A stretch of 64,000 bases of DNA from an uncultured Rhodothermales bacterium (GTDB taxonomy: Bacteria; Bacteroidota; Rhodothermia; Rhodothermales; JANQRZ01), in NCBI GenBank assembly GCA_964438105.1, contig CAYTJT010000001.1, positions 1,236 through 65,235 on the forward strand, written 5' to 3'. Made by a program: the position numbers and the translations under genes. Positions 1 through 37,694 of this stretch are shown in pieces (position 1 is the stretch's first letter; every line of letters begins with the position of its first letter). The notes beneath the pieces were generated by a model, which saw only the letters and a list, made by a program, of their open reading frames with translations, was not told where the DNA came from and made no database searches.

Positions 1-392
1 CCCAGAAGAGCCACATCGTCATCTATCAAGGTGTTGAGCCTAGATCCTTCCTTGTCGACTACCGCCTCTACACGGGAGACAAACAGGTTGCAAACTTGCT
101 CGTCAGCCCTGCCTGCTCCGATGGCAAAGCCTAAGTATGCCAGCGCTGGAATACCGCTGTACGAGATGTCACGCGCTACGGCGTCTGGCTCAAACTGACG
201 CGGGATCGCACCAGCGTAAGGTGCTTGGCGTCCGAGAAGCCTGATTGCGAAGCCGCGGGAGTGCAGCCGGGCATCCTCGAACGTGCGGTCTACGACGGAG
301 CGAAGCAGCCTCCGCCGCTCGCCGACAAGATCGATGGGATGGCTTGATGATTCCGTGTCCTGCTGAGGAGGCTCGTCGGTTGCCTCGCTCAT
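1..392 (-). CDS. hypothetical protein, N-terminal part only (runs off window); translationally coupled to pAgo
   Basis: Own translation from ATG 392..390: MSEATDEPPQQDTESSSHPIDLVGERRRLLRSVVDRTFEDARLH... stays open to position 1. It is absent from the ORF track because it is open-ended. ATGA overlap with the pAgo stop (389-391). No family recognised. Confidence 0.5.
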   Translation of the reverse strand, partial: MSEATDEPPQQDTESSSHPIDLVGERRRLLRSVVDRTFEDARLHSRGFAIRLLGRQAPYAGAIPRQFEPDAVARDISYSGIPALAYLGFAIGAGRADEQVCNLFVSRVEAVVDKEGSRLNTLIDDDVALL

Positions 393-2776
393 AGGAACCA
401 CTTGCTGTTGCGCAGAGCGCCCATCGTGACTGTCGAGCTGTCCCACCCGGACACAGGCCTAAGCTGCGCGAGACGCTGCGCAATCCATCGCGAGTATAGA
501 ATGGTGACGGGTTCACTCGCCGGGAAGAAGCTGCGCCACGAGAGAAAGGAGAAGTGATAAACCTGCCGCACGAGGTAGGACAAGTCAGCCGCATCGGAGT
601 CGTTGTGGATCTCGATCAGCATAGGCTCGGGAGCGCCGTCGAGGTCGGTTTTTACCTCACGAGGCCCGACAAGTTGAAGCAGAGCACTACGGGGGCCGAG
701 CTGATAGCAGACGCCCCTCTCCGGTACTCCCTTCCCTTTCGTAAAACGGCCCCTACGCTCCGGCGGGTAGTAGGGCACGCCGTCCATTGAGGGGTCGAAG
801 AGGCGGTAGGCGTGGGCGGTCGATAGGTCGAGAAACGCGAACTCTACCTCGTACCTGTTTTCAAGCAGCTGGTCTACGACGCCTCGCACCGATTCGATTT
901 CGACCCTTTTCAGCGGCTTGTACACGTGGAAGATGAGGCGAACGCGGTCGCCGGGCTCCCACTCGTTTTCGACCTCAACGTAGCGAATCGTGTTGCGCAG
1001 GCTTTCGAGTAGCGCCGCGGCGTAGTCTTCGAACTCGACTTCACGCGTGACATCCCAGGCGAGATAGCGGCCGTCGCCCTGAAAGAACGTGGTGATCCCC
1101 ACGTAGCGCTTACGCGGTCCAAGTCGATGCTCGTCGAACGACTCGGTATACCCGATACCGATCACGACCTCACGGCTGCTCGGGTTGCGCGTGCTGATAA
1201 CCCAAGGCGTGCCGCCGATCTTGGCGTAGCAGGCCAGTCCGACGTTGTTCAGCACATATGGGGCCTGACTTACATGGGCGTCCACCTTCTCCGCCGTGAC
1301 TGCCTGAACAGGCACGCCCTTCATCATGAACTCCGACTTAACGACGAAGTACGGGTTGTCGTCTCCCTTCAAGCCTCCCTCCTTGTACTCAGCCCGAGTT
1401 TGCACGAGAGCTAGATCGGGGAGTCTGGTGAGCCTTCCGAGAGCGCGCTTGATCCCTCTGCGGTAAGATTCCGGGCTGGGGTCTGAGATTTCCTCGAACT
1501 CGTACTGGATGCGCCTCAAACGGTACTTGTCTACCAACCCTCCTTCGTAGGGATTGGCTTTGGTACCGCGCGAGCCTCGGCTGGCCTGCTTCCACTCCGC
1601 ATCCGGAAACCCGAACCTCAGTTCTTCCGCAAAACGCTCGACTTGTATTCGCTGACTCGCCTCGCATAGCACGAGGATGAGAGGTTCGTTGACCTCCTGG
1701 TGCATATACTGATACGGCCCAAATCGGCTGACCCCTGCATCGGGATATTGTCCTGTTTTACGTCCCTGAGGCCCGAACAGACACGTGGGTCGGGTAGTGG
1801 TGATGGACTGCGGAAATAGTTTGTCCTCTTGCGACATGAAGTCGCCGATTGTTGCAGTGGCTGCACCGAAGCCAAGTCGGACGTAGCCGCGAAGCCCTTT
1901 GAGTGTATTGGTGAGATGACTTCGCTGGCCGTCGGCAGTGACGTAGGACCTACGCGTCTGGTACAGTTGGTCGAGAATCGGTTTTGCGCTGCGCCCGTAG
2001 ATCGCCCGGACGACAGTTGCAAGGTTCTCCGACCGCGGTTCCAAGAGAACTGAGTGTGCGTCGACTCGCAACTCTGGTGCCTCTTGCTCTCGCAATCCTT
2101 TCTGGTCGGTCAGGATGAGTTCACCGCGCTCGATGCTGCGAACCCGGCCAAGCGTTTCGAACTCAGGAAGTAAGAAGTCGTCTCGTTCTTCGGAGCGCCT
2201 GCCGACAAACATTCCCCTGGGATCCACGCCGCTCTCTATTAGATCAGACACGGGAAGGTTTATGTAGTTGGCCGTTCGCAGGTCAATCAGGAAACCGAGA
2301 TAGGGCGTGGGGTCATTTCCTCTGGGATAGAGCAGCCGCGTATCGAGTCTGAACCGGACGAAGACGTCCAGGTCTTCCACCGGCTCGATGTCGCGCTGCT
2401 TTCTCTTAGCAACGCTTCGAATCGCATTTGCGAGAAGTCGATTGCGTCGAGCTGCGGACCAAAAGACGACGGGGTTGAGGTCTCTAAGTACGACGTATCT
2501 GTCCTTGATCTGCTCTACGATCTGCCGTTGGATGACCCGGCTCGCCAGCAACAGGTTCTCTTCGACAGGCTGAACCGAGACCGTACCCAGCGGCGCGGCA
2601 TCTCCGACGCCCACGTTGGCAATCTTTTGAATGCGCGCATCGAAACGAAAGACGTGCGTGTCTTTGTGCCTCTCGCGTAGAGTCTGGTAGGCCTCCTTTC
2701 CCTCGTCGGGGAGATATCCTATCTCGACGGTTTCGCGGTCAAACGAGACCGGAGCTGCATTGAGGAGAACGCTCAT
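389..2776 (-). CDS. prokaryotic Argonaute, long type with inactive PIWI (long-B-like)
   Basis: 795-aa ORF. MID-pocket-like strings NPYFVVK and GVPVQAV; PIWI entry NNVGLACYAKIGGTPWVI; C-terminal PVTILYSRWIAQ. DEDX positions are substituted: VVIGIGYT where IGxD is expected, LIFHVYKP where RDG is expected. GC is visibly lower than in neighbours. Confidence 0.8.
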   Translation of the reverse strand: MSVLLNAAPVSFDRETVEIGYLPDEGKEAYQTLRERHKDTHVFRFDARIQKIANVGVGDAAPLGTVSVQPVEENLLLASRVIQRQIVEQIKDRYVVLRDLNPVVFWSAARRNRLLANAIRSVAKRKQRDIEPVEDLDVFVRFRLDTRLLYPRGNDPTPYLGFLIDLRTANYINLPVSDLIESGVDPRGMFVGRRSEERDDFLLPEFETLGRVRSIERGELILTDQKGLREQEAPELRVDAHSVLLEPRSENLATVVRAIYGRSAKPILDQLYQTRRSYVTADGQRSHLTNTLKGLRGYVRLGFGAATATIGDFMSQEDKLFPQSITTTRPTCLFGPQGRKTGQYPDAGVSRFGPYQYMHQEVNEPLILVLCEASQRIQVERFAEELRFGFPDAEWKQASRGSRGTKANPYEGGLVDKYRLRRIQYEFEEISDPSPESYRRGIKRALGRLTRLPDLALVQTRAEYKEGGLKGDDNPYFVVKSEFMMKGVPVQAVTAEKVDAHVSQAPYVLNNVGLACYAKIGGTPWVISTRNPSSREVVIGIGYTESFDEHRLGPRKRYVGITTFFQGDGRYLAWDVTREVEFEDYAAALLESLRNTIRYVEVENEWEPGDRVRLIFHVYKPLKRVEIESVRGVVDQLLENRYEVEFAFLDLSTAHAYRLFDPSMDGVPYYPPERRGRFTKGKGVPERGVCYQLGPRSALLQLVGPREVKTDLDGAPEPMLIEIHNDSDAADLSYLVRQVYHFSFLSWRSFFPASEPVTILYSRWIAQRLAQLRPVSGWDSSTVTMGALRNSKWFL

Positions 2777-2847
2777 GGGTGAATGGTCTATAATCGATAA
2801 TTACGCATAAACTTTGAGTGACAAGCTATGGATCACCCACAGTTTGA

Positions 2848-5800
2848 CTAAGCTGCGTAGTTGCCTGCGCTATGGCGGAGCAGGCCGAGGCTGGTGAGCG
2901 TGTCGAGGATGGGGGCCACGGTTTTGGGGCCAGCGCCGCGGAAGCGAGAGGCGATGTCGGCGGCAGTGCCGGTGCTCAGCGCGCTGACGGTCTGGCGGAC
3001 GGCTACGAACTGGTCGGCCTGACCGGTGGGCCAGGGGCGCAGCGTGGCGGCTTCGTAGACCGGATACTCCTCGGGGGGCAGCACGAAGCCGACTTGGGCG
3101 GCACCGGGAGACTGGAAGGCGGGGCGTAGGTAGCGAACGTGACCCTCGGACTCCTCGCGGGCGCGCTGGGCGTTGAGGGCGACGAGGCGAGCAAGCAGCT
3201 TCTGCGCGAAGGCGGGCGTCTCAGGGTCGAGGTCTGACCAGGCGTAGGCGTCTAGGACAGCGGCGTCGAGGCGGCGGTGAAGGTCGGCGAGGGTGTGGCC
3301 GTGGCCCTGGGTGGCGTGTTTCTGTTCGCGCTCGGTGAGGACGCGGCCTGCTCGGATGGCGCTGGCGGCGTTGTAGAGGTCGGTGAGGCCGAGTCTAGGC
3401 TGTTCGTGCTGGCGGGCTTTTCGGTGGGCGTCGATGGCGTCGCCGAGGGTGCGGATGGCGGTCTGCTGCTCTGGGGTGGCGGCGGGGAACGGGAAGGGCT
3501 GGAAGCAGCGGGTGGTGTTGTAGACCGAGTCGTTTCCGACGCCGAGGTTGCCGCCTGCGGCGTCGGCCCACGTGGTGTGGATGCGGCTCGACAGCACGCC
3601 GAGGTGGTAGGCGTCGTCCGATCCAAACGCGATGATCTTGTGCTCGGGCAGCACGCTGATCGGCAGAAACTGGAAGAGGCGGTGTTTGGCCGTTTCGGGC
3701 GTGGCGATGTAGCGGTCGAGACCAGCAAGCGCACGCCGCATCGACGGACGCTTCTCGCCATGCAGCCACCAGTAGACTCGGTGGGCTTTGCGACGCTTCT
3801 TGGCTCGCTCGGGCTTCACGTCGCGAAGCAGGCGTTCGTAGACGGCCGGATGCTGCTCGCGTAGCTCATCCTCTTCCAGACCGAACGTGTCGAGGATGAA
3901 CCGCTCTCGGGGTGGGTTCGCTAGGTCCTTTCCGTTGAGCGTGGGACGGATGATCTCTTCGCTGCCCGCGTACGTGCCCAGTCCAAGAGTCTCGGCCTCT
4001 CCCCTGCTACCGACAATGAACGCTCGGCCCGACACCATCACGCCGAAGCTGGACAGATCGGCGTTGGCTGCTAGCTTCTCGGCGGCCGTCACGTCGGCTC
4101 CGGTCGTCAGGTCGGCGTGGATGCGGCCTTGCCTCTCATCCATTTCGACGACGGGTAGTCCCTCGTCCGACGGCATCTCGGCGGTGACGACGGAGAGGGC
4201 GCCTGCGTCGGGGTCGAAGTGGTCGGACGAGGCGCCGACGGTGACGGCCATGCGCACGTCGGCGCCGTCGTCGGCCCACGGGTGATCGGCGAGAGCGTAG
4301 GCGAGGGCGAGGGGTGGTAGGCCCCCCTCCGGCCCTTGCGGGCCACCTCCCCCCGTGGGGGGAGGACGGTCGTGTTGGAAATGTGGGGGGGAGGACGTGG
4401 TTTTGGCGTCCTCGGGGTCGAGGTGGGCGGCGGTGATGCGGCGGTTGAAGGTCTGGGTGATGCTGTTGGTGGTGATCAGGCCGAAGCGCTGGGCTTTGCC
4501 CTCGCGCACGAGGCGGGCGCATCGGTCCCACCAGTACATCACGAAGTCGGCCGAGGCGGGCACGTGCGGGTAGGCTTGGGCGAGCGCGTCGAGGCCGTCC
4601 TGGCCGAGCGAGGCGCGCATGGGTTCGCCCTTACCGACGAAGGGCGGGTTGCCGACGATGAAGTCGCAGTCGGGCCACTCGGCGGCGGAGCCGTCGGGCG
4701 CGAGCAGGGCGTCGCGGTGCTCGACCTGGCCGTAGCCTTTGAGGATCGGTTCGGGAAGCGGCTGGGTGTCGCCGTGCGTGCGCCAGTGCCATTGCAGGTA
4801 GCCGATCCAGAGCACGAGGTCGGCCACGCTGGCGGCGCGGGCGCCCTTTTCGATGCCGAGCATCTGGTGGGGCGTGACGGCGACGCCTTCGAGTTCGAGC
4901 GCCCCCACGCCTCCGGCGCGTCCGATGGCCTGGCGCACCTCGCCTTCGAGCGCTTTCAGGCCCGCGAAGGTGACGTAGAGGAAGTTGCCGCTGCCGCAGG
5001 CGGGGTCGAGCACGCGGACGGTCGCCAGGCGCGTGAGAAAGCCCGAGAGAAGGGCGCGGGCCTCCTCCCTCCTCTTGGCCGCCGTGCGCGGCTTGCCCTG
5101 CTCGTCGGCGTGATCGGCGGCTTGCTCGGCCTGCTCGGCGGCGGCGCGCACGCCGTCCCACTGCTCGCGCAGCGGCTCGATGACGGCCGGTCCGATGACG
5201 CGCTCGACGTAGGCGCGCGGCGTGAAGTGGGCGCCCATGTGGCGCCGCTTGGCGGGATCGAGGGCGCGCTCGACGAGCGTGCCGAAGATGGCCGGTTCGA
5301 CGTGCTGCCAGTCCATTGCGGCGGCCTGGATGAGCGCTTCGAGCTGACTCGCGGTGAGGTCCGGCGCGTAGCGGTCGCGGAAGAGCTGTCCGTTGAAGCG
5401 GCGCACGTCCTCGCGGATCTCGCCGACGTAGCCGCCCTCGTCCATGGCGCGGAAGAAGCCGGAGAGGCCGTGGGGCAGGTGGGTGAGGTCGGCGCGGTAG
5501 GACTCGAGCAGTCGGGAGAAGGCGCGGTCCGGGAGCAGTCCGGCGTCTTCGGCGAAGAAGCAGAACAGGCAGCGCGTGAGAAAGGCGGCGGTCTGTTCTG
5601 ACCGCTCGGCGGCGGTGGCGCCAGAGTCGGCACTGAGCGAGCCGTCAGAGAGGGGGCTGTCGTCGAGCGAGCGGGCGAGACCCGCGAGGCGGGCGGCGAG
5701 GTCCCGGGTGACGCGGGCCTGGTAGCGGGTGGGGTCGAGTGCGAGCGGGTCGTCGACGGCGAGGCGCAGGCGCTCGCGCACGTCCTCGTCGCGCAGGTCG

Positions 5801-6330
5801 TCGAGGTAGACGCGCCTCTTGGAGGCGTCGGGGAAGGGGGCGTAAACGCGGCCCGATCCGCCGAAGTCGGCGTAAAGGTCGATGCAGTAGCCGACGTCGG
5901 CGACGATGACGAGCGGCGGGACGGGTTCGCTGGGTTCGAGGTTTTGGGCGTAGCGGACGGCCTGGGCGCGGGCGGCGTCCATCGCGGATTCCCAGGCGGA
6001 CGAGCCGCGCTTGCCATGCCCTTTGCGGCGGCGGGTGCCTTTGGCCTTCTGCTCCTCGTCGAAACCCTGCTTGGTTTCGAGCACAAAGTGGCCGCGTCGG
6101 TAGAGGTCGATGATGCCTCGGGAGCCGTCGGCGAAGGCGACGGGGCGCTCGAAGACATAGGCGTCGCGCGTGGTGTCGGCGACAGCCGGGTCGGGGGGCG
6201 TGGCGCCGATCAGCTCGAAGAGCGCGAGGACGAACGGTTGGCCGTTGCTCTTCTCGGACGCTTGGGCCTTCTGCCACAGCGCGATAAAGTCGTCGATCTG
6301 ATCTGTGGTAGGCGCAGCTGACATGGGCAA
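2848..6330 (-). CDS. MmeI-like Type IIL restriction-modification enzyme (PD-ExK nuclease + N6-adenine methyltransferase + TRD)
   Basis: 1160-aa ORF. N-terminal IIDLYRRGHFVLETKQG (D..E.K nuclease-like). SAM motif I VLDPACGSGNFLY. Motif IV IVGNPPFVGK. Long C-terminal TRD-like region. Confidence 0.85.
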   Translation of the reverse strand: MPMSAAPTTDQIDDFIALWQKAQASEKSNGQPFVLALFELIGATPPDPAVADTTRDAYVFERPVAFADGSRGIIDLYRRGHFVLETKQGFDEEQKAKGTRRRKGHGKRGSSAWESAMDAARAQAVRYAQNLEPSEPVPPLVIVADVGYCIDLYADFGGSGRVYAPFPDASKRRVYLDDLRDEDVRERLRLAVDDPLALDPTRYQARVTRDLAARLAGLARSLDDSPLSDGSLSADSGATAAERSEQTAAFLTRCLFCFFAEDAGLLPDRAFSRLLESYRADLTHLPHGLSGFFRAMDEGGYVGEIREDVRRFNGQLFRDRYAPDLTASQLEALIQAAAMDWQHVEPAIFGTLVERALDPAKRRHMGAHFTPRAYVERVIGPAVIEPLREQWDGVRAAAEQAEQAADHADEQGKPRTAAKRREEARALLSGFLTRLATVRVLDPACGSGNFLYVTFAGLKALEGEVRQAIGRAGGVGALELEGVAVTPHQMLGIEKGARAASVADLVLWIGYLQWHWRTHGDTQPLPEPILKGYGQVEHRDALLAPDGSAAEWPDCDFIVGNPPFVGKGEPMRASLGQDGLDALAQAYPHVPASADFVMYWWDRCARLVREGKAQRFGLITTNSITQTFNRRITAAHLDPEDAKTTSSPPHFQHDRPPPTGGGGPQGPEGGLPPLALAYALADHPWADDGADVRMAVTVGASSDHFDPDAGALSVVTAEMPSDEGLPVVEMDERQGRIHADLTTGADVTAAEKLAANADLSSFGVMVSGRAFIVGSRGEAETLGLGTYAGSEEIIRPTLNGKDLANPPRERFILDTFGLEEDELREQHPAVYERLLRDVKPERAKKRRKAHRVYWWLHGEKRPSMRRALAGLDRYIATPETAKHRLFQFLPISVLPEHKIIAFGSDDAYHLGVLSSRIHTTWADAAGGNLGVGNDSVYNTTRCFQPFPFPAATPEQQTAIRTLGDAIDAHRKARQHEQPRLGLTDLYNAASAIRAGRVLTEREQKHATQGHGHTLADLHRRLDAAVLDAYAWSDLDPETPAFAQKLLARLVALNAQRAREESEGHVRYLRPAFQSPGAAQVGFVLPPEEYPVYEAATLRPWPTGQADQFVAVRQTVSALSTGTAADIASRFRGAGPKTVAPILDTLTSLGLLRHSAGNYAA
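4320..4400. repeat. GC-rich hairpin repeat copy 1, in frame inside the MmeI-like gene
   Basis: ggcccccctccggcccttgcgggccacctccccccgtggggggaggacgg is about 85% identical by eye to 26500-26549. Perfect 9-bp stem cctcccccc/ggggggagg at 4346-4365. Encodes the SSPP..GGGGPQGPEGG insert. Confidence 0.7.
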
Positions 6331-6386
6331 GGTAGAGCGAAAGCAGCCAAGCTAACGCACCATTCGTAACGAGAGGCGGCGACATT

Positions 6387-6408
6387 TGCACATGTTCTCT
6401 TATGTGTA
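6387..6408. promoter_or_regulatory. imperfect palindrome TGCACAT-N8-ATGTGTA in the divergent RM/umuD intergenic region (possible SOS/LexA-type operator)
   Basis: Read directly. 6 of 7 arm positions are complementary. It lies 31 nt upstream of the umuD start. The operator role is inference only. Confidence 0.3.
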
Positions 6409-6438
6409 TACTCGCGTCGCTCTCTCACCTCCTGTTCT

Positions 6439-6885
6439 ATGCTGCGCGTCTCTGGCGTCGTGCCCTTTCGGCGGGGTGCACCCTTACTCGTTCCGTTTTA
6501 CTCGCACCGGGTGCGTGGGGGCTTCCCCTCGCCAGCTGAGGAGCACGAACAGACGCGCGTCGACCTGAACGATCTGTTTTGTCCGAACCCGGGCGCGACG
6601 TACTTGCTGACGGTCGAGGGTACGAGCGTGACCGGCCTGGGCGTCAAGGAGGGCGATACGGTCGTGGTCGACGGCAGCATCGAGCCGCGAGACGGACACA
6701 TCGTCATCGCGCGGCTCGACGGCGAGCTGACGGTGAAGCGGCTACGCGTGAGCGGGCGAGGCGCGAACCGGGTGGTGCTGCTCGAGGCCGACGACACGCA
6801 CCCGAACATTCCGGTCGAGGGCGAGGTCGAGCTGAGGATTGTCGGCGTCGTGCGAGCTGCGATCACGAACGTGCTGCGCAAGTGA
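6439..6885 (+). CDS. umuD: UmuD-like S24 peptidase (translesion polymerase V accessory subunit)
   Basis: GFPSPAEEH, TVEGTSVTGLGVKEGD (Ser), GELTVKRL (Lys), beta-rich C-terminus. Stop overlaps the umuC GTG (GTGA). Confidence 0.85.
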   Translation: MLRVSGVVPFRRGAPLLVPFYSHRVRGGFPSPAEEHEQTRVDLNDLFCPNPGATYLLTVEGTSVTGLGVKEGDTVVVDGSIEPRDGHIVIARLDGELTVKRLRVSGRGANRVVLLEADDTHPNIPVEGEVELRIVGVVRAAITNVLRK

Positions 6886-8171
6886 GCAGCGCCGGTGCCC
6901 TACCTGCAAACCGCCTGGTGGCTCTGGTGGATTGCTCGGCGTTCTACTGCTCATGCGAGCGGGTTTTCCGGCCCGACCTGGACGGTCGGCCGGTCGTCGT
7001 GCTCTCGAACAACGACGGGTGCGTGATCGCCCGGACAAGCGAGGCCAAGGCGCTGGGCGTGGCGATGGGAACGCCCTACTTCAAGACCGAGCGCGAGCTG
7101 AGGGCGAAGGGCGTAGCGGTGTTTTCGAGCAACTACGCGCTCTACGCCGACATGTCGGCGCGCGTGGTGGCCGCGCTCGAATCGCTGACGGACGAAGTCG
7201 AGCGGTACAGCATCGACGAAGCATTCGTGCTGGTGCCCAGGGTGCGCGAGGCCGACCTGTGGGAGATCGCGCGGGAGACGCGGCGGCGCGTGGCCGCCTG
7301 GACGTCCATTCCGGTTCGGGTGAGCATCGCGCCGACCAAGACGCTGGCCAAGGTGGCGAGCGAGCTGGCGCGGTCGCGAGCCGATCAGACGTACGTGATG
7401 ACCGAGCCGAGCAAGGCGGAGCTGTCGGCGGTGGCCGTGGGCGACGTGTGGGGCATCGGCCCGGCCTACCGCCGGAAGCTCGAAGCGCGGGGCGTGATGA
7501 CGGCGTGGGACCTGGCGGCCGTCGATGCGAGCTGGGCGCGGCGGACTATGACGGTCGTCGGCGAACGGACGGTGCGTGAGCTGCGCGGGCAGGCGTGCAT
7601 CGGCATCGAGCGCGAGCCGCCATCGCCCCGTGGAATCTGCCGGAGCCGGTCGTTCGGGCGTCGGGTGACAACGCTGCGCGAGGTCGAGGAATCCGTCATG
7701 ACGCGGCTGGGCGAGGCCGCGGCGAAGCTGCGGCGGCACGGGCTGACGTGCGGGCACCTGAGCGTGTTCGTCTCGACGGGGCGTCACGCGGAGAAACGGT
7801 ACAGCCGGAGCGTGGGGGCCGGGCTGGGCGAGCAGACAAGCGACACGATGACGCTGGCGCGCGTGGCCGGTGGACTGCTGCGGGCGATCTGGCGGCCGGG
7901 CTTCGACTACAAAAAGGCGGGCGTAATGGTCACCGATCTGGCGAGCGCGTCGGCTCCGCAGGCGATGCTCTTCCAGGAACCGGACCCGAAGCGGGCGGCG
8001 CTCATGGCCGCCGTCGACGTGTGCAACGAGCGGTTCGGGCGCGGCGCGGTGCGGATGGCGTCGGCGGGGCTGGGGTCGGGCCAGGCGTGGCAGATGCAGC
8101 GGCGGTTTCTGTCGCCGGCGTACACGACGGATGCGCGCTCATTGCCAGTTGCAAAGGTCTTTGCACCTTGA
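6882..8171 (+). CDS. umuC: UmuC, Y-family DNA polymerase V catalytic subunit
   Basis: From GTG 6882: VSSAGALPANRLVALVDCSAFYCSCERVFRPDLDGRPVVVLSNNDGCVIARTSEAK... The track ORF 6579..8171 was trimmed to the start that overlaps the umuD stop. Confidence 0.9.
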   Translation: MSSAGALPANRLVALVDCSAFYCSCERVFRPDLDGRPVVVLSNNDGCVIARTSEAKALGVAMGTPYFKTERELRAKGVAVFSSNYALYADMSARVVAALESLTDEVERYSIDEAFVLVPRVREADLWEIARETRRRVAAWTSIPVRVSIAPTKTLAKVASELARSRADQTYVMTEPSKAELSAVAVGDVWGIGPAYRRKLEARGVMTAWDLAAVDASWARRTMTVVGERTVRELRGQACIGIEREPPSPRGICRSRSFGRRVTTLREVEESVMTRLGEAAAKLRRHGLTCGHLSVFVSTGRHAEKRYSRSVGAGLGEQTSDTMTLARVAGGLLRAIWRPGFDYKKAGVMVTDLASASAPQAMLFQEPDPKRAALMAAVDVCNERFGRGAVRMASAGLGSGQAWQMQRRFLSPAYTTDARSLPVAKVFAP

Positions 8172-8416
8172 ACGACAACAAACTCCTGCTCGTAGAGAGC
8201 TGTCGTTCGTCGTAGGCATTGGCCGGGTTGACCGAACCGTCAGCATCGAATGCACGCGCGCCAACCGGGTACGATGATCGACAAGTCCATGATGGATACT
8301 TTCTCGTGTACGAAGGCGGTTTTCGTGAAAACCGCTTCAAGGTTCTAACTACAGTTGACCCAACACCCTCAATCAATCTATGTTATGAATAACCAAACAC
8401 TTAACCCCTTTATCTG

Positions 8417-9280
8417 ATGATAAAATATTTCCTTCTCGTAGCGGTAGCTCTTTTCGGCTTTGCTGCTTGTGATTCGACTACTGAATCCCCTGCCGGCAAC
8501 GATGCTGAGATGCTGGTAGCACCTAGCGAGGTAGGCGTTTACCACAACGCTGGCTTAGACTTCGCACGGTCATACATCGAGTCAGAAACCAAGAGCCTTG
8601 GCAAGACCGGTCGCATGCTCACTGGCAACGTAAGCCGGGACTTGCTGACTATTGTTGAGGAGTCTTGCTTTCAGTTCGCTGAGTCGGTAGTTGCTGAACA
8701 AGCCACGTCCGCCCCCGGAACAGAAGAAGCAATGCGCAGCGCCTGTACTGCTGGTGCTACAGAATCGATGGGCAAAACCGGCAATCAGTACTCGGACAAC
8801 ATGTCAGCCGAGCAAGCGCGCTTCGTTGAACTTATATACGACGTTGTCGAAGATGCTGGTCGCCAGGGGCTAAGCGATATCGATTCTGAAATCAGCGACC
8901 TCCTTGCCGACGCGAAAAAATCACTCCCTTCCGATGAACTTTACTTGGTTGAATCCGCTGCGTCTGTCGCGGCGCACACGTATGTGTATTGGGGAGATGA
9001 GAGCAACGTGCGCGACTGGCTGAATGTAGTCAGCGACTTCAAGGCTCAGTATAGCTTCGTAACTGGCGTTCCTTCCAGTGAGATTGCTTTCGGCAAACAG
9101 AAGGCCCTTGATCTCGACGCAATTAGGAGAGATGACGTGAAAGGTGGTGTTGCGGGTGCATTTACCGGGATAACGATGAGCTTTGGTACCCTGGGCGCTA
9201 GCATCGCAATGGGCGCGCTTATTGGATCGGTCGGAGGTTCTACTGGAGAGCTAATTGCTCAAGGTTGGGATATGCTGTAA
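8417..9280 (+). CDS. lipoprotein with C-terminal glycine-zipper hydrophobic domain
   Basis: Signal peptide and lipobox LFGFAAC. C-terminal GGVAGAFTGITMSFGTLGASIAMGALIGSVGGSTG. GC is clearly lower than in the flanks. Confidence 0.7.
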   Translation: MIKYFLLVAVALFGFAACDSTTESPAGNDAEMLVAPSEVGVYHNAGLDFARSYIESETKSLGKTGRMLTGNVSRDLLTIVEESCFQFAESVVAEQATSAPGTEEAMRSACTAGATESMGKTGNQYSDNMSAEQARFVELIYDVVEDAGRQGLSDIDSEISDLLADAKKSLPSDELYLVESAASVAAHTYVYWGDESNVRDWLNVVSDFKAQYSFVTGVPSSEIAFGKQKALDLDAIRRDDVKGGVAGAFTGITMSFGTLGASIAMGALIGSVGGSTGELIAQGWDML

Positions 9281-11965: not shown

Positions 11966-12425
11966 CGTGGGCGGGGTTGCGCTTCGCGAACCTTCGGTTG
12001 AGGCAGTCGGTGAGTTCGGCGATGGTGTAGACCTGGGGGCGGAGGTCGTGCATGTGGTCGAGGAAGCCGTGTTTTTCGGCGAGGCGGACGCAGAGGCGGG
12101 CGCGGGCGCGGTCGTAGGCGAAGCAGCCGAGCGCGTCGGCCATCTCGGCGGGCAGGATGCGGTCGAGCACGTCGCACGCCTGGGAGAACGTGAGCGGCTG
12201 GCGGCGCTGGCGGCGGTCGATCCGATGCAGCCATACGAGCGAGTCGCGCACGTCGGAGCCGATGCGCTGGCCGTCCGAGGCGGAGATGGTGAGCCGTGGC
12301 CGCGCGCCTGGTGTGCGGGTGATGATGCAGCCTGCGGCCGTCAGGCGGTGCTCGATGGGGCGCGGATCGGTGCCGGCTGGCGCCGTCGTGCAGCGCGGGC
12401 GCTGGGGCGAGGGTAGGCGGATCAC
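11958..12425 (-). CDS. hypothetical protein ending in NRRFAKRN repeat unit
   Basis: 155-aa ORF. The C-terminus ...CLNRRFAKRNPAHDE is encoded by the 26-nt repeat at 11976-12001. Confidence 0.5.
   Translation of the reverse strand: MIRLPSPQRPRCTTAPAGTDPRPIEHRLTAAGCIITRTPGARPRLTISASDGQRIGSDVRDSLVWLHRIDRRQRRQPLTFSQACDVLDRILPAEMADALGCFAYDRARARLCVRLAEKHGFLDHMHDLRPQVYTIAELTDCLNRRFAKRNPAHDE
11976..12001. repeat. 26-nt GTTGCGCTTCGCGRACCTNCGGTTG repeat (copy outside the nuclease gene)
   Basis: gttgcgcttcgcgaaccttcggttga. Near-identical to the copies at 28270, 28369 and 28657. Confidence 0.7.
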
Positions 12426-12964
12426 GAGACGCGGAGGTGATAGCCTGCCTCGCCGAAACCGGCGACGGCGAGCGCTTCGGAGTCGTCGGCTTTGAGCGCG
12501 TCGGAGAGTTCGCGCCGGTCGACGCGGACGGATCGACGCAAAAACCGCTCGGGTAGCGCGTCCTCCTTGACGTGCAGCTCGACCGGGCGCGCGCTGTTGC
12601 GGCGTACGCTGACGGTGCCGAGCGGCGTGTCGATGCGCTTCTCGTCGCGGGCGAGCATGGCGGCGAGCATTCGCGCCTCGATGCGTTCGGCGGAGCGCTC
12701 GTAGCGCTTGGCGTGGTCTGCGATGCGGTCGGCTTCAGCCTTGGCACCTTCGGCGCTGGTGCGCAGGCGTCGGATGACGGCAACGTATCCGCCCGCCTTA
12801 TCGGCGCGCATGGTGAGCAGGTCGGCGTACTCCGCTTCCATCTCCTCGGTGATCTCTCCGCCGCCGTCGATCATGTCGCGTTCGAGGCTGGCTAGGCGCT
12901 CGTCGATGGCGTGGAGGGCGAGGGGGGCGGGCGCTGGGCCGTGGTCGGTTTTCTTCTTGGGCAT
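12422..12964 (-). CDS. Siphovirus Gp157-like protein
   Basis: 180 aa. N-terminal coiled coil, then TPLGTVSVRRNSARPVELHVKEDALPERFL, which resembles Gp157-family phage proteins. Confidence 0.55.
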   Translation of the reverse strand: MPKKKTDHGPAPAPLALHAIDERLASLERDMIDGGGEITEEMEAEYADLLTMRADKAGGYVAVIRRLRTSAEGAKAEADRIADHAKRYERSAERIEARMLAAMLARDEKRIDTPLGTVSVRRNSARPVELHVKEDALPERFLRRSVRVDRRELSDALKADDSEALAVAGFGEAGYHLRVS

Positions 12965-17893: not shown

Positions 17894-19330
17894 TTAAATC
17901 GCCAATAGCTGACGAACCGCTGATATGAGGGGGCGGAGTCCAGCGTCGGTGTGCATTTTGTCAGCCGGACCAGCGAAGGCACGCACCTCCACGAGCAGAT
18001 CCTTCGCCACGGGACTGATTAATTTGGCTTCGACTAGCTCTAAGAGAGCGTCGAACTTTTTTTTGGGCAGCGACCGATCAAGCTTCGAGGAGATTGATGG
18101 GTCAGTGAACGAGAGCAGAGCGCGGGATGCCTGGCGAGGGGTAAACTGTGCGATCAGCTTTTGGTAGATCGGCTCTGCGTAGTAAGCAGTGCCATGCCCA
18201 TTCGTGAGGTATACCTCGACGATCGCTCGAACATACTCAGCCTCAATAGACTCTGGTACAGTCCCCTTACCCCCGACTGCGGTGTCTAGCTGACGTGCAA
18301 ACGTAGGCTCCAGATGGAAATTTTTCATGGGAGCACGATGCGCAGCAAGTAGGTTCTGAATCGCGTCTTGCACCTCGGCAGCGCGTAATGCTTCGGGCAC
18401 GTAACTGGCCGCGTCAACGAGAGTGAGGAGGGCACGGGCACGCTCAGCTTCACCGGTCTCGCCATTGGCGGCATACTGGCCATACTTGACCCCAAACGAC
18501 CGCCTCACGTCCTCGCCAAGCATCACCCATAGTCGGGGGAGCAGATGCCGTACGTTTTGCCGAGCATGTTCCGGTGAGTCTTTGTCTACGTAGATGCCGA
18601 AGAGGCCACTGGCTAGACTCCCCGCTCTATCTCGATCCAACTCGCCGAAGAAAGCCGCCGCTTGGGAAGCTTCGGCTGCGTTCATCTCAGAAGACCGAAC
18701 ATTGGTAAGCAACCTCGCGATGTGAGCAACAATGGTGTTGACTGGTAGAGCGACTACTTCATTTATGCACGTCTCCAACCAAGCTATGAGCTGGAGACCT
18801 GTAAGGTCGTTCTGATTGGGGTGTGCAGCGCTCGCCCAGTTGCGCATGTAGCGAATGCTGTCCAGTTGCTTAAAGCCAACGTCTGAGATCAATCCGATTT
18901 CACGAGCGCCCTGCAAGAGTTCATCATCGGTAATCTTGTCGAGGTCACTGGCGCCCTTCAAGTTCGACCGTTTGTTCGCGCTTTTGACAGCTACGTCGAA
19001 GAAGTAAGACACGTCGTACTGCATAACTCGGTGGCGCAGCTCTTGAATCGTCTCATCCCACAGGTAGTTGAGAGCAGCGTCAAAAAGACCTGCGGCGACC
19101 GCTGCTGTGAACTTGGAGACGTAAAGCGATCGAGCTTTTTGACTCGAATCCAGTTTGCTTAGAGCATCGGAGAGGTTGTTGATCACACGTCTCCGCTGCT
19201 CGGTAGGTGTCAGCACGTCGGACGTAGGCAGCCCACTACTCTGCAAGAACGCCAGTAGTCCATCGTTGAATGGACCTATCTCCTGTATGTCTGATGCTCT
19301 GAGTGTTAAGGCGGTCTCGGAAGCACTCAT
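17894..19330 (-). CDS. HEPN/Abi_C-like protein (abortive-infection candidate)
   Basis: 478-aa ORF with lower GC. Single Rx4-6H-type string IRYMRNWASAAHPNQ. Otherwise helical with no other family recognised. Confidence 0.55.
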   Translation of the reverse strand: MSASETALTLRASDIQEIGPFNDGLLAFLQSSGLPTSDVLTPTEQRRRVINNLSDALSKLDSSQKARSLYVSKFTAAVAAGLFDAALNYLWDETIQELRHRVMQYDVSYFFDVAVKSANKRSNLKGASDLDKITDDELLQGAREIGLISDVGFKQLDSIRYMRNWASAAHPNQNDLTGLQLIAWLETCINEVVALPVNTIVAHIARLLTNVRSSEMNAAEASQAAAFFGELDRDRAGSLASGLFGIYVDKDSPEHARQNVRHLLPRLWVMLGEDVRRSFGVKYGQYAANGETGEAERARALLTLVDAASYVPEALRAAEVQDAIQNLLAAHRAPMKNFHLEPTFARQLDTAVGGKGTVPESIEAEYVRAIVEVYLTNGHGTAYYAEPIYQKLIAQFTPRQASRALLSFTDPSISSKLDRSLPKKKFDALLELVEAKLISPVAKDLLVEVRAFAGPADKMHTDAGLRPLISAVRQLLAI

Positions 19331-19368
19331 GCTGCATTGCTGTTTTTGACAAAAGGCAGCAATGCAGC
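19331..19368. promoter_or_regulatory. inverted repeat GCTGCATTGCTG-N14-CAGCAATGCAGC abutting the HEPN-like start codon
   Basis: Perfect 12-bp arms. Spacer tttttgacaaaagg. The repeat starts at the nucleotide next to ATG 19330. Confidence 0.65.
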
Positions 19369-19445
19369 AGTACGAGTTTGGTTCTCCGAAACGAACCTGG
19401 CCGGACGAGCGCTACCTCTTCGGCAAACGCTGGACCACCTCACCG

Positions 19446-20177
19446 TCAGCGTCGAGAAACACAAGTGATGATAACCCCATCGGCATCCACGGATATTCGG
19501 ATGCGGCTCCTCCCCTGTTTGTCATGGAGCGAGAGCGTCACGTCGTCGCGGTCGCTACGCGGATCGGTGATGGTCCCGGCGAAGAACCTGCGCGTGTGGG
19601 GTCCGGGCGAGAGGCGGGCGATCTGAGCGCGAGCCGAATCGCTTCCGCCTCGGGCCGAGTCGCGGATTGCGATGAGTTCGTTCATCGGTAGTGCAGGCTG
19701 ATCGTTGACGAAGTACCCTGCCGATCGAACGCTACCCTGCTCGGAGTAGGTCATGTTGAGCACTTGATCCTGGTTGATTCGATCAAACGAGAGGTGACCA
19801 GACCCCCAACGCACGGAGTCTCGGTCCTCACCGCCGAAGATGAGGCCGCCCGTCTCCGTCTCTTCGGTATTGTAGAAGATCATTCCCGGATGCGTACTCG
19901 GCCTTTCCCGCAGTTCGTCGCCTTGGAACACGAGACCGGGGATGCGCTCCGCGTTTGCGATCACCATCGCCAACCGCCCGTCGGGTTCGCGCACGTTGAT
20001 GCGCTCGACGTCGATCTCGACGAAGCGTTGGTATGCATAACCGAACGCTCCTAGGACGAGCAGTAGCAACAGGCCGAACTTTGCTGCTTTGCTGCCTTTG
20101 ATAAAAAACAGCAAAGCAGCAGAAACCTCTACAACAGCTCGTGACCTGACAACCGCCGGAACTGCGCGACTGGGCAT
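19446..20177 (-). CDS. membrane-anchored hypothetical protein
   Basis: 243-aa ORF. N-terminal KGSKAAKFGLLLLLVLGAFGYAY signal anchor. The start is uncertain because repeat 20082-20121 lies within the 5' end. Confidence 0.5.
   Translation of the reverse strand: MPSRAVPAVVRSRAVVEVSAALLFFIKGSKAAKFGLLLLLVLGAFGYAYQRFVEIDVERINVREPDGRLAMVIANAERIPGLVFQGDELRERPSTHPGMIFYNTEETETGGLIFGGEDRDSVRWGSGHLSFDRINQDQVLNMTYSEQGSVRSAGYFVNDQPALPMNELIAIRDSARGGSDSARAQIARLSPGPHTRRFFAGTITDPRSDRDDVTLSLHDKQGRSRIRISVDADGVIITCVSRR
20082..20121. repeat. inverted repeat TGCTGCTTTGCTG-N14-CAGCAAAGCAGCA
   Basis: Perfect 13-bp arms. Spacer cctttgataaaaaa is in the opposite orientation to the spacers at 17844 and 19343. Confidence 0.65.
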
Positions 20178-23868: not shown

Positions 23869-25299
23869 CTACCGGATGACGGTGAGCGTGCGCGTCTGCG
23901 AAGCTGCGCGGATGAGGTAGAGGCCGGGCGAGAGGGCGGACACGTCGAGGCGGTCGGTGCTGGGCGCGAGCGTGGCGACGTGCTGGCCGAGCAGGTCGTA
24001 GACCGTGGCCGCCGTGCCTTCAGGTCGGTCGATGCGGACGGATGCGCGCGCTGGGTTGGGATAGGCGGCGAGCGCGCGAGCGGGAATCGTCAGCTCGACG
24101 ACGGGCGAAAGCTCTTGGCTGCCGTCGAGGTCGACCTGTCGCAACCGGAAGCGGTGCGTGCCGGGAGCGAGCGCGGCCGTGGTGAAGCGGTAGTGCTGGG
24201 CTTCGAGCGTCGTTCCGTGACCCGTCGCAAAGCTGATCGACACGAAGCCGCCGTCACGGTCGTGCTCGACGTGGAAGCCGCTGTTGCCTGTCTCGCTGGC
24301 TGTCGTCCAGTCGAGGCGCGCGCGCTTCCCGTCGAGCGTGGCCGTAAAGGCGACAAGTTCGACGGGGAGCGCGCCGGTCGCGTAAGCGCGATCCGCGAGC
24401 GTGGCGTCGATCACGAACGGGTTGTCGTTGCCCTGGTGACCCTTCACGCGGGCGGAGCGGTCGCGCTCGGCCTGATCGGGTGGATCGGTTCGATGCCAGG
24501 CGATGAGCGTAGCGAGTTGGCCGTCGAACCAATCGTGGCGGTCTTGCGACTCGTCGACTTCGTTCTGATAGATCGAGCGGAAGTAGAAGAGGGCGCGCGC
24601 GACGTCGCCGCGCACCGATGCGCGCGGCATGAAGTGGGTCGAACTGACGGCCGAGAAGAGCAGCGTGTCGGCTCCGGCCTGAGCGAAGGTGTAGTTGGTC
24701 GTGTCGGCGTAGAGTCGCGTCGCGGCCGAGTAGGCGAACTGTCCGAACGGCTTGTTGCCTCGGGCCGAGTTGACGTCGCCTCGCGCGGGCCAGAGGTGGT
24801 GCAGGTCGGTCTTGGCGCTGCCGTAGCGCGCGCCGTACGACTGCGGCCAGAGGTGTTCGGTGTTGATGGTGCGGCTGTTGGAGCACGACGACGAGGAGCC
24901 GTCGCGGTCGCCGTCGCAGCCCGCCGAGGTCGGGTCCTGGCCGGGGGCGATGGGGAGGACGCGCCCGGTGTAGATGTCGGTGATGCGGGTGCGGTCGGCG
25001 TCGTCGACGAAGGCGAACAACGTGTCGCGGGCGCGGGCGTACGAGTAGGTCGACATGGGTGTGTGGCTCGCCTGGATGCACTTGATGAGCGCAGCGCCGG
25101 ACTGGCCGGGGCAGATCGTCTGGGCGCGAACGGCGGAAGTGGGAGCGACGAGCAGGACGAGCAGAATCGCGGCGCAATACCACGGCTTCCAGCTCCGCTG
25201 CGCTCGGATGCCGGAAGAGGGGATCGCCGAACGAGAGGAGTCGCCACTTGTCGGGAACGCCTGCGCGTTTGGCGGATTGGGCTGGGAAACACGACGCAC
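23869..25299 (-). CDS. secreted endonuclease I family nuclease with T9SS C-terminal sorting domain
   Basis: NTEHLWPQSYGA, DLHHLWPARGDVNSARGN. Signal peptide AAILLVLLVAPTSAVRAQ. CTD AYPNPARASVRIDRP...GLYLIRAASQTRTLTVIR. Start is uncertain; GTG 25299 is the first in-frame start not antisense to the Xre/RES genes. Confidence 0.8.
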   Translation of the reverse strand: MRRVSQPNPPNAQAFPTSGDSSRSAIPSSGIRAQRSWKPWYCAAILLVLLVAPTSAVRAQTICPGQSGAALIKCIQASHTPMSTYSYARARDTLFAFVDDADRTRITDIYTGRVLPIAPGQDPTSAGCDGDRDGSSSSCSNSRTINTEHLWPQSYGARYGSAKTDLHHLWPARGDVNSARGNKPFGQFAYSAATRLYADTTNYTFAQAGADTLLFSAVSSTHFMPRASVRGDVARALFYFRSIYQNEVDESQDRHDWFDGQLATLIAWHRTDPPDQAERDRSARVKGHQGNDNPFVIDATLADRAYATGALPVELVAFTATLDGKRARLDWTTASETGNSGFHVEHDRDGGFVSISFATGHGTTLEAQHYRFTTAALAPGTHRFRLRQVDLDGSQELSPVVELTIPARALAAYPNPARASVRIDRPEGTAATVYDLLGQHVATLAPSTDRLDVSALSPGLYLIRAASQTRTLTVIR

Positions 25300-25305
25300 A
25301 ATCGG

Positions 25306-25780
25306 TATGACGGACACGGCAGGCATCAGGGAGTGGAAAGGAGGAACAGTCGATTCAGGGGGCGGCGTGCCGTTCCACCGGCTCGACGGGTCGGGCGTGA
25401 TCGGGCTGGCGCACGGCGAGGGTCCGAAGCGGCTGCATGTGGGGCTGACGGTTCGCGCCGTCGACGCGCTGCGGGCGTGGCTGGGCGTGAGCGCCAAAGA
25501 GCTGGCGTCGGTGCTGTGCATCAGCGACCGCACGCTGAGCCGGCGGCGCAAGTCGGGCGAGCGGCTGGGCCTGGACGAGGGCGACCGGGTGCTGCGCCTG
25601 GCGCGGCTGTGCGAGATGGCCGAGAGCGCGCTGAGCGGGGCCGAGCGGGGCGCGCGCTGGATGCGCGAGCCGCACCCGCTTCTCGAGGGCGAAGCCCCGA
25701 TGCGGCTGGCGCGCACCGAGCCGGGCGTGCGGCAGGTGGAGTCGCTGCTAGCGAGCATCGAGTACTCGATGCCGGTATAG
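25306..25780 (+). CDS. Xre/MbcA/ParS-like antitoxin (HTH + DUF2384-type C-terminal domain)
   Basis: From ATG 25306. LASVLCISDRTLSRRRK (HTH). WMREPHPLLEGEAPMRLARTEPGVRQVESLLASIEY. Confidence 0.8.
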
Positions 25781-26257
25781 GTGGGCGAGCTGCTCACGCT
25801 GCACCGCTTGACGCTGGCGAAGTATGCCGGGACCGCGCTGAGCGGCATCGGCGGGCTGCACGCCGCGGGCCGGTGGCACCGCGCCGGGCATCCGGTCGTG
25901 TACGCGTCGGAGTCGACGGCGCTGGCCGTGCTCGAAGTGCTGGCGGGCACGCGCGACCGAACGGTGCTGAGGGACGCTTCGTACGTGCGCCTGACGGTCG
26001 ACGTGCCGGCCGAAGGGATCGTTCGCCTGAGCGGCGCAGAGCTTCCCCCGGACTGGCAGGCGTGGCCGCACGGCGAGTCGGCGCAGGAGCTGGGCAGCCG
26101 GTGGCTGGCGAGCCGCGCCTCGCTGGGGCTGTCGGTGCCGTCGACGCTCATCCCGACCGAGCGCAACGTGCTGCTCAACCCGCTGCACCCGGACTGGGGG
26201 CGAGTGGAGGCGAGCGGGCCGGAAGCGTTCGTCTTCGACGCGCGGCTGGGCGAGTAG
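25781..26257 (+). CDS. RES-domain toxin
   Basis: GTG abuts the antitoxin stop. GRWHRAGHPVVYASESTALAVLE ... SVPSTLIPTERNVLLNP. Confidence 0.85.
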   Translation: MGELLTLHRLTLAKYAGTALSGIGGLHAAGRWHRAGHPVVYASESTALAVLEVLAGTRDRTVLRDASYVRLTVDVPAEGIVRLSGAELPPDWQAWPHGESAQELGSRWLASRASLGLSVPSTLIPTERNVLLNPLHPDWGRVEASGPEAFVFDARLGE

Positions 26258-26267
26258 CGGAGCGGTT

Positions 26268-28109: not shown

Positions 28110-28110
28110 T

Positions 28111-28812
28111 TCAGTCGCCGAGAGATGCGAGAGAAGCCGACGTGCCGGGGTCACCCGCCCACAGACCCGCCGACGTGGCGCGCGCCTGCCGTTCGCTTCG
28201 CGGTCCCCTGCGGGGTTCGAGCTGGTCGTAGTACTGCTCGCGCTCGTGGGGAAATCGACCGCCGCCGTCGTTGCGCTTCGCGGACCTACGGTTGCTGTGC
28301 GCGAAGCCGCGCTCGATCATGCGCGCGCCGAAGTCAAACGGAGCGCCGGTGTCGACGCCGCCCTCGGCGTTGCGCTTTGCGGACCTGCGGTTGCCGACGA
28401 GGCGGCCGTACTTGCCGCGCGTCGATCCGACGACGCGCACGGCCGATTCGACGGGAAGGAGCTGCTGGGCCTGCTCGGTGGCCGCGACGCCGAGTGCCTT
28501 GATGGCGGCGGCGAGGCGCGAGCGTTCGGCGTCGCGCCTCATCTTCGAGCTGCCGTGCTTCTCAGGCGTGTCGATGCCCTGAATGCGGACGGTTTCGGTG
28601 GCGCCGCTCGCATCGGTCAGCTCGACCGTGTCTCCGTCGACGATGCGCTCGACGGTGTTGCGCTGCGCGGACCTTCGGTTGAGCGTGCCGGGTGCGCCCG
28701 CCTGCGTGAGTTGACCGCACGAGGGCGCCATGCCGGCCAGCGAGAGCAGGACGATTGCAAGCGATGAGAGCGAGTTTAGCGGAGCGCGCATCGTAGTCGA
28801 GTGCTTCATCAT
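28111..28812 (-). CDS. staphylococcal-nuclease-fold (thermonuclease) exported protein carrying four NRRSAKRN-type inserts
   Basis: From MMKHSTT (ATG 28812, ATGA overlap with the ATPase stop). Signal and lipobox-like LAGMAPSC. VDGDTVEL, IQGIDTPE, KYGRL, AGLWAG. Confidence 0.75.
   Translation of the reverse strand: MMKHSTTMRAPLNSLSSLAIVLLSLAGMAPSCGQLTQAGAPGTLNRRSAQRNTVERIVDGDTVELTDASGATETVRIQGIDTPEKHGSSKMRRDAERSRLAAAIKALGVAATEQAQQLLPVESAVRVVGSTRGKYGRLVGNRRSAKRNAEGGVDTGAPFDFGARMIERGFAHSNRRSAKRNDGGGRFPHEREQYYDQLEPRRGPRSERQARATSAGLWAGDPGTSASLASLGD
28191..28682. repeat. four copies of the 26-nt GTTGCGCTTCGCGGACCTNCGGTTG repeat within the SNase gene
   Basis: Copies at 28270-28295, 28369-28394 and 28657-28682, plus a degenerate copy at 28191-28220. 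They encode NRRSAKRN, NRRSAKRN, NRRSAQRN and PRRGPRSERQ. Confidence 0.75.
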
Positions 28813-35975: not shown

Positions 35976-36386
35976 CTACGACCGGTACATGATCGTGGTC
36001 AGCTCCCACGACTCGGTGACCGCGCCGGGCGCGTCGGGCGTGACGTATAGCTCGACGACGTATTCGCCCTGTGGAGCGAAGAGGCTATTGGGACCGATGC
36101 CGCGCCAGTGCGCTTCGCGCTGCCCCGCCGTCTCGCGGCGCGGGCGGGTGATGTCGCGCACGAGCGAGCGCGTTCCGTCGGCCCCTACGGCGGTGATGCG
36201 GATTTGGACCTCGCCGCTGATTTCGAGCCGGTACCGGATGACGCACGGCTCCTCGAACGCGTTGAACGTAGGGCTGACGCGAAAGCTGCTGACCGACTCG
36301 ACGGCGGAGGAGACGCCGACAGGCGGCGTGCATCCGGCCAGAACGAGAAGAGCCGAAGAGGCGAGCAGGTACGGGAGAACGGTCAT
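35976..36386 (-). CDS. small lipoprotein, beta-sandwich-like
   Basis: MTVLPYLLASSALLVLAGC lipobox. The start forms an ATGA overlap with the integrase stop. Confidence 0.6.
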   Translation of the reverse strand: MTVLPYLLASSALLVLAGCTPPVGVSSAVESVSSFRVSPTFNAFEEPCVIRYRLEISGEVQIRITAVGADGTRSLVRDITRPRRETAGQREAHWRGIGPNSLFAPQGEYVVELYVTPDAPGAVTESWELTTIMYRS

Positions 36387-37480: not shown

Positions 37481-37504
37481 AGATCTGAAGGACCGTTGAC
37501 GGGG

Positions 37505-37533
37505 AGATACCCAGATGCAACAATGTCTGTCAA
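37505..37533 (-). promoter_or_regulatory. sigma70-like promoter for the integrase (TTGACA-N17-GTATCT)
   Basis: Minus strand reads acTTGACAgacattgttgcatctggGTATCT, 24 nt upstream of ATG 37480. Confidence 0.4.
37514..37532 (+). repeat. 19-nt direct repeat GATGCAA(C/G)AATGTCTGTCA, copy 1 (upstream of int)
   Basis: 18 of 19 identical to 39783-39801. Confidence 0.65.
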
Positions 37534-37694
37534 GTCCATGCATGCAGAATCATAGCTAGCGCGCGTTATGTGAGACCCGTATTGACGGGCACATCGCGTG
37601 CCAATCGCGGCATAGGCATACGGGAATGCCGATTCGGCGGTGCGTCTTATAAGGCCGCACGCGGCACGAGCGAGGACAACTTTTCTGGGGGGTG

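Follow-up and report, generated by a model that had tools for sequence, protein, structure and literature searches.

The window analysed here is a 64,000-nucleotide (nt) stretch from an uncultured Rhodothermales bacterium (assembly GCA_964438105.1, contig CAYTJT010000001.1, positions 1,236 to 65,235 of the forward strand), at the start of which three co-directional genes on the minus strand encode a restriction-modification (RM) enzyme of the MmeI family, a prokaryotic Argonaute protein (pAgo) of the long-B type and a coupled downstream protein. This layout had been described in a first-pass annotation made from the letters alone, and each of its elements was present in the open reading frame (ORF) table or in the reverse-strand read. 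The RM gene (2848..6324 (-)) encodes 1158 amino acids (aa) when read from the ATG at 6324, which is also the start used in the metagenome gene call, while the ORF as a whole spans 2848..6330(-) and yields 1160 aa from a TTG. It is separated by an AT-rich gap of 71 nt (2777..2847 (-); 39% GC vs. a window average of 67%) from the pAgo gene (389..2776 (-), 795 aa). The stop codon of the latter (TGA, 391..389) and the next start codon (ATG, 392..390) share an ATGA overlap at 389..392 (-), after which the frame stays open up to the window edge (1..392 (-), 130 codons). An exact-sequence look-up of the pAgo led to the parent contig, a 76-kb metagenome contig (JGI 3300040801 Ga0450804_3683823), and the gene that runs off the window start was recovered as a complete gene of 429 aa (L001:12385-13674). 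The identical sequence was found in three metagenome samples, i.e., in the 76-kb contig and in two shorter contigs from sister samples.

The pAgo matched the PADLOC profile pAgo_II with an E-value of 3.7e-213 (aa 4-795 vs. profile positions 2-724 of 724) and the Pfam Piwi domain with 4e-10 (aa 478-771). Two long-B pAgos, EcAgo and RsAgo, were recovered with comparable strength: EcAgo (PDB 23wq) aligned by phmmer from aa 1-795 to 1-731 with about 30% identity (2.3e-78), and RsAgo (PDB 5awh/6d8x) reached about 9e-78. The protein has the full-length long-B architecture (N-L1-reduced PAZ-L2-MID-PIWI), and all four motifs singled out in the first-pass annotation (YFVVK, VPVQAV, AKIGGTPW and VVIGIGYT) are in its translation.

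With regard to catalysis, EcAgo carries G492, E532, Q568 and D700 at the positions of the DEDD tetrad (Liu et al. 2026, PMC13535254). We carried these published positions over through the EcAgo phmmer alignment, rather than through a direct alignment to an active pAgo such as TtAgo, and checked the residues in the translation. Mapped in this way, the tetrad positions, which lie in a PIWI stretch at 488..1153 (-), are occupied by G542 (1151-1153), E583 (1028-1030), Y619 (920-922) and R763 (488-490); of the four acidic residues, three are missing and the glutamate-finger E583 alone is kept. In an alignment of 16 members of the pAgo family (A1; 32-100% identity), the first position was an invariant G, the second was mostly E, the third was Y, H or F and the fourth R, K, E or Q, with none of the 16 showing an Asp at position 1, 3 or 4. 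The tetrad is thus not intact, three of its four positions being non-acidic in the mapping through EcAgo, and the earlier description of a catalytically dead long-B pAgo that lacks the DEDX tetrad stands.

A different profile was observed for the pocket that holds the guide. The residues assigned to the 5′-phosphate guide pocket of EcAgo (Y426/K430/Q441/K469, together with N460 and the terminal L731; Liu et al. 2026, PMC13535254) are matched by Y476/K480/Q491/K519, N510 and the C-terminal L795 in the pAgo of the window, where the MID-domain pocket lies at 1220..1351 (-), and the whole set was invariant across the 16-member alignment. The loss of the tetrad together with the conservation of the guide pocket makes this pAgo look, at the level of its residues, like a working guide-binding sensor that is unable to slice.

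The downstream gene had been proposed as the effector of the pAgo and, on its first 130 codons, as belonging to no recognised family. The second statement held for the fragment inside the window, which gave no match to Pfam or PADLOC on its own, but not for the complete gene, whose 429-aa product matched the PADLOC profile Aga_Helical-REase 'Class II' (E 2e-81, aa 39-418), the Pfam family DpnII-MboI REase (1.5e-26, aa 270-414) and the EcbAgaN chain of PDB 23wq (4.6e-25, about 30% identity). The catalytic D-EVK motif of EcbAgaN consists of D298, E309 and K311 (Song et al. 2023, PMC10620215), and D331 and E342-V343-K344 align with it, so that the motif is intact. The gene is also full length compared to its homologues. 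On these matches we identify the product as bAgaN, the long-B pAgo-associated PD-(D/E)XK nuclease, and the pair of pAgo and effector as the described BPAN system, which is composed of a pAgo and bAgaN (Song et al. 2023, PMC10620215) and for which a structure has been reported (Liu et al. 2026, PMC13535254). In an earlier compilation, partners of inactive long-B pAgos were listed as RecB2-type nucleases (og_15) (Ryazansky et al. 2018).

The gene neighbourhoods of relatives were surveyed by tblastn with the three proteins at 80 genome loci that encode pAgo relatives (29-59% identity), with flanks of 10 kb in both directions as far as the contig extended. In 72 of the 80, the pAgo gene was directly followed by a bAgaN homologue on the same strand. 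The same arrangement was observed in all nine loci from the closest metagenomic relatives (pAgo identity 53-69%), which represent seven different neighbourhoods, with a 4-nt overlap or a gap of at most 10 nt between both genes in L084, L086, L087 and L090. In the plasmid collection, only distant pAgo relatives were found (≤33% identity). The role of the coupled gene as the effector of the pAgo is therefore borne out by its identity as bAgaN, by the ATGA overlap and by conserved synteny.

The remaining gene of the three encodes an enzyme in which MmeI_N, MmeI_hel, MmeI_Mtase and MmeI_TRD were all detected above the Pfam gathering thresholds in one polypeptide. The protein scored 1190.8 bits against the PADLOC profile REase_MTase_IIG and 1.9e-43 against MmeI itself (PDB 5hr4). 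Its nuclease motif (D73-x9-E83-x-K85) has the same spacing as D70/E80/K82 of MmeI, and the motifs of a gamma-class methyltransferase (MTase) are present as DPACGSGNFL (motif I, 440-449) and GNPPFVGK (motif IV, 558-565). The product thus appears to be an intact Type IIL/IIG enzyme in a single chain, in agreement with the earlier reading of an MmeI-like protein with a PD-ExK nuclease and an MTase of its own. Between the MTase and TRD domains, a Pro/Gly-rich low-complexity insertion was observed (SSPPHFQHDRPPPTGGGGPQGPEGGLPP; aa 644-671, window 4312-4395 (-)), a stretch which falls outside the alignment with MmeI. The alternative that the gene encodes a methyltransferase of BREX or DISARM (PglX/DrmMI) was rejected, with matches far weaker than that to the IIG profile and with the partners PglZ/BrxC and DrmA/B/C missing; the neighbouring genes are UmuD/UmuC, beside the RM gene, and the pAgo gene.

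The first-pass annotation had also suggested that the MmeI-like enzyme may be functionally linked to the pAgo, and had presented the pAgo, the Type IIL RM enzyme and the partner as an architecture of three genes. At the 80 genome loci, no MmeI-like homologue (tblastn E ≤ 1e-5) was found within 10 kb of the pAgo gene (0/80), and none was found in the examined loci for five of the seven different neighbourhoods of close metagenomic relatives; the two genes adjoin each other only in the contig studied here. More generally, the ORFs immediately preceding the pAgo gene fell into 58 clusters across 65 loci by a crude clustering, the largest of which, AbiEii, had three members. Recurrent synteny of the three genes had been set beforehand as the test of the architecture, which is thus refuted by the survey; the core of two genes, pAgo and bAgaN, is confirmed. 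Likewise, no functional link between an MmeI-type enzyme and a pAgo was found in the literature searched.

Base composition and the gap itself point in the same direction. The pAgo gene has a GC content of 58% and a GC content at third codon positions (GC3) of 69%, and the bAgaN gene has values of 57% and 61%, in sharp contrast to the RM gene (70% and 86%) and to the flanking genes on the bAgaN side (a 129-aa ORF and a czcA-like gene), with 72-74% GC and 92-94% GC3. Within the gap, a sigma-70-like match (TTGTCA-16-AATTAT, 2824->2797, minus strand) was detected, which is a match to the consensus only and one of two such matches in 7 kb. The AT-rich gap, as a candidate promoter, probably drives the BPAN operon. 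No RNA family was detected by a scan of the window with Rfam, and the gap holds no remnants of abiE or other genes, the closest relative (L084) aligning only at the 3′ end of the RM gene and at the 5′ end of the pAgo gene.

Taken together, the locus very probably comprises two separate defence systems that adjoin each other on an element resembling a plasmid or ICE, namely a BPAN operon and a stand-alone RM enzyme of the MmeI family. Several observations weigh against this explanation or against carrying the EcBPAN model over in full. Identity to EcAgo and to EcbAgaN is only around 30%, and the phmmer alignment of the effector to EcbAgaN spans aa 182-418, its N-terminal domain being covered by the PADLOC profile alone. 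Contacts between EcAgo and the nuclease involve R552, N554 and D559, in an 8:8 assembly through MID/PIWI (Liu et al. 2026, PMC13535254); in a hand mapping, the equivalent of D559 (D610) is kept and invariant, while those of R552 and N554 are E603 and E605, and the 8:8 assembly cannot be assumed here; such interfaces may co-vary with the partner. Furthermore, no terminator-like hairpin was found by a scan of the minus strand between the RM and pAgo genes, and an MmeI-like gene with the same orientation also occurs in the island of the closest relative (L084/L085, 69% pAgo identity).

The last two points, along with the co-directional arrangement of the three genes at a distance of 71 nt, favour an alternative in which all three form one unit, the MmeI-like enzyme being co-transcribed and cooperating with pAgo-bAgaN either as a first line ahead of an abortive second line or through RM cleavage that feeds the pAgo. 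The lack of a terminator-like hairpin after the RM gene makes read-through transcription possible, and the MmeI-like gene of L084/L085, the only close neighbourhood with such a gene, resembles that of the window at its 3′ end (73% nucleotide identity) and in the C-terminal half of the protein (46% identity). This similarity probably reflects a framework shared by the two islands by descent. However, the MmeI-like gene of L084 lies 6.5 kb upstream of the pAgo gene, and seven other defence genes (five of TIR/SEFIR type and an AbiEi/AbiEii pair) separate them; adjacency of the RM gene to BPAN is therefore not required, and other defence genes can insert between both without disturbing either. The absence of MmeI-like genes from the surveyed neighbourhoods, the compositional contrast, the promoter-like site in the gap, and the fact that EcBPAN functions without an RM partner also argue against the three-gene unit, which we regard as improbable. 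A version restricted to this lineage, in which BPAN and the MmeI-like enzyme form a coupled pair transcribed by read-through across the gap as a layered RM-then-abortive unit, and in which selection beyond descent keeps the framework common to the closest relative, appears just as doubtful. The functional link that had been suggested is accordingly not supported, and two neighbouring systems remain the preferred explanation.

In EcBPAN, recognition of DNA by the RNA-guided pAgo activates the nuclease, leading to non-specific degradation of DNA and to abortive infection (PMC10620215; PMC13535254). For the BPAN operon of the window, we infer by analogy with that system which type of guide is used, how activation proceeds, what the stoichiometry is and that the outcome is abortive. 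The pAgo would load small RNA guides with a 5′ phosphate in its MID pocket and would base-pair with, but not cut, complementary DNA of the invader. The resulting ternary complex would then recruit an autoinhibited bAgaN dimer via the N-terminal helical domain of the nuclease, and oligomerisation would switch on the PD-(D/E)XK domains (D331/E342/K344), with indiscriminate degradation of DNA and death or arrest of the cell, i.e., abortive infection, as the expected outcome. The MmeI-family enzyme would act alone as a classical RM barrier, with the two systems stacked, as is usual in defence islands.

A second alternative is that the pAgo acts alone, according to the classical view of RsAgo as a protein that binds and silences plasmid DNA under RNA guidance, the nuclease being dispensable or inactive. 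The match to RsAgo equals that to EcAgo in strength, and the glutamate-finger is kept, both of which would fit with this view; nevertheless, the ATGA coupling, the intact D-EVK motif and a bAgaN gene that follows the pAgo gene in 72 of 80 loci speak for an effector that works, and the nuclease is essential for defence by EcBPAN (Liu et al. 2026, PMC13535254), so that we consider a stand-alone pAgo very unlikely. Least probable is a decaying remnant devoid of present function, for which the atypical GC content, suggestive of a recent foreign arrival, and the lack of an obvious Shine-Dalgarno sequence before the pAgo ATG in a by-eye reading could be put forward, but the three ORFs are full length compared to their homologues, all motifs checked are intact and the sequence recurs identically in three metagenome samples.

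The kind of system described here is already known, both BPAN genes are recognised by standard PADLOC profiles, and no new question is opened by their presence. What is new is a divergent, high-GC and mobile-element-borne example of BPAN, with around 30% identity to the only characterised member, together with the observation that the conserved unit is the pAgo-bAgaN pair and not the adjacent RM gene. This member of the family could be used for testing the generality of the 8:8 activation mechanism of EcBPAN.

Other arrangements were observed around the pAgo genes of the relatives. In L084, four consecutive genes with TIR/ThsB/SEFIR domains and an LD_cluster3 gene (L084:1566-6021) are located between the MmeI-like gene and AbiE. 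An AbiEi/AbiEii pair was found directly upstream of the pAgo gene in five diverged BPAN loci (L084:6059-8004, L088:2459-4398, L091:327-2338, L004:5925-7786 and L029:7943-9887), whose pAgos are 36-69% identical to that of the window, and the AbiEii stop codon overlaps the pAgo start by 4 nt in L084 and L088. AbiE and BPAN may thus form a recurrent arrangement of four genes, which is not present in the window.

A DinG/XPD-like helicase of approximately 830-880 aa (DEAD, ResIII and Helicase_C_2) is encoded next to bAgaN in several of the relatives; its orientation varies, and an integrase often lies on its far side (L086:11644-14133, L084:11675-14206(-), L089:6159-8765(-), L091:6338-8980 and L029:13930-16374(-)). 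In L032 and L033 (both at 5996-8488(-)), it is found around 1.5 kb upstream of the pAgo gene instead, and neither locus has a bAgaN homologue. These two loci belong to plasmid pTA3_3 of Tundrisphaera sp. TA3, a single 52-kb plasmid with two pAgo matches and no detectable bAgaN downstream, and the identical coordinates of the helicase match in both suggest a large duplication. A helicase of this kind was found neither in the window nor in the recovered part of the parent contig.

With regard to the wider context, a plasmid replication protein of the RepA_C type (38594-39691) is encoded beside a tyrosine integrase (36383-37543), both on the minus strand of the window. Genes for heavy-metal efflux were found beyond the window start (a resistance-nodulation-division (RND) pump with a membrane-fusion protein (MFP), a cation-efflux protein and a P-type ATPase) as well as inside the window (a set of RND, MFP and outer-membrane efflux protein (OEP) genes and a second P-type ATPase). 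Given the integrase with RepA_C, UmuDC and the metal efflux genes that flank the defence genes on both sides, the 76-kb contig resembles a plasmid or an integrative element (ICE). No further PADLOC defence genes were detected among 10 nearby ORFs. At 12422-12964 (-), 6 kb from the RM gene, lies a DNA-end-protection gene of the Mu Gam-like/Sipho_Gp157 type; Mu Gam-like proteins shield linear DNA ends.

Further features were observed elsewhere in the window. Two tandem large proteins of 800 and 628 aa (23869-28154 (-)) both carry an Endonuclease I domain and a C-terminal sorting domain of the type IX secretion system (T9SS); they resemble secreted nucleases, a hint that the host has such a system. 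Two patches of low GC content (8417-9280 (+) and 17894-20177 (-); 52-56% vs. about 69%) encode a protein of 287 aa with a hydrophobic, signal-peptide-like N-terminus in a by-eye reading and no family match, a protein of 478 aa that corresponds to phrog_27609 (function unknown; 7e-55) and a protein of 243 aa without a match, and are probably further foreign insertions. An 84-nt tRNA-Gly(TCC) called by ARAGORN at 31061-31144 (-) is likely a false positive, because Rfam detected no tRNA at gathering score in the window.

Compared with known systems, the RM protein shares with MmeI (PDB 5hr4) its four domains, the D-x9-E-x-K spacing, DPACGxGNFL and GNPPFVGK, whereas it is longer (1158 vs. 919 aa), with a longer C-terminus and the Pro/Gly-rich insertion (aa 644-671). 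The pAgo and RsAgo of Rhodobacter sphaeroides (PDB 5awh/6d8p; 9e-78) are both inactive long-B pAgos and belong to one clade. RsAgo uses RNA guides against DNA targets, and work on it has mainly treated it as a stand-alone binder; unlike RsAgo as studied, a coupled nuclease clearly belongs to the unit here. In common with BPAS and BPAM, an inactive long-B pAgo would serve as the sensor and the downstream gene as the toxic effector, but the effector is of the nuclease type (og_15/bAgaN) and not a SIR2 (BPAS) or membrane (BPAM) protein. The proposed path from a pAgo sensor through a collateral nuclease to abortive infection would also be shared with SPARDA and other short pAgo-nuclease systems; in contrast to those systems, which rely on short pAgos, APAZ-DREN effectors and filaments, the pAgo of the window is long and its nuclease is from a different family.

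The closest counterpart is EcBPAN of E. coli (EcAgo and EcbAgaN, PDB 23wq). The two differ in that identity is around 30% and the pAgo of the window is 64 aa longer, in that three tetrad positions are lost here (G/E/Y/R) compared to two in EcAgo (G/E/Q/D), in that the interface residues R552 and N554 lack conserved counterparts here, and in that the present pair comes from a high-GC environmental bacterium and is borne on a plasmid- or ICE-like element. Both systems nevertheless have the pAgo upstream and a tightly coupled nuclease downstream; their pAgos align from end to end and share a Gly at the first tetrad position, the Y-K-Q-K pocket in MID and a C-terminal Leu, and both effectors consist of a helical N-terminal domain followed by a PD-(D/E)XK C-terminal domain with D-EVK.

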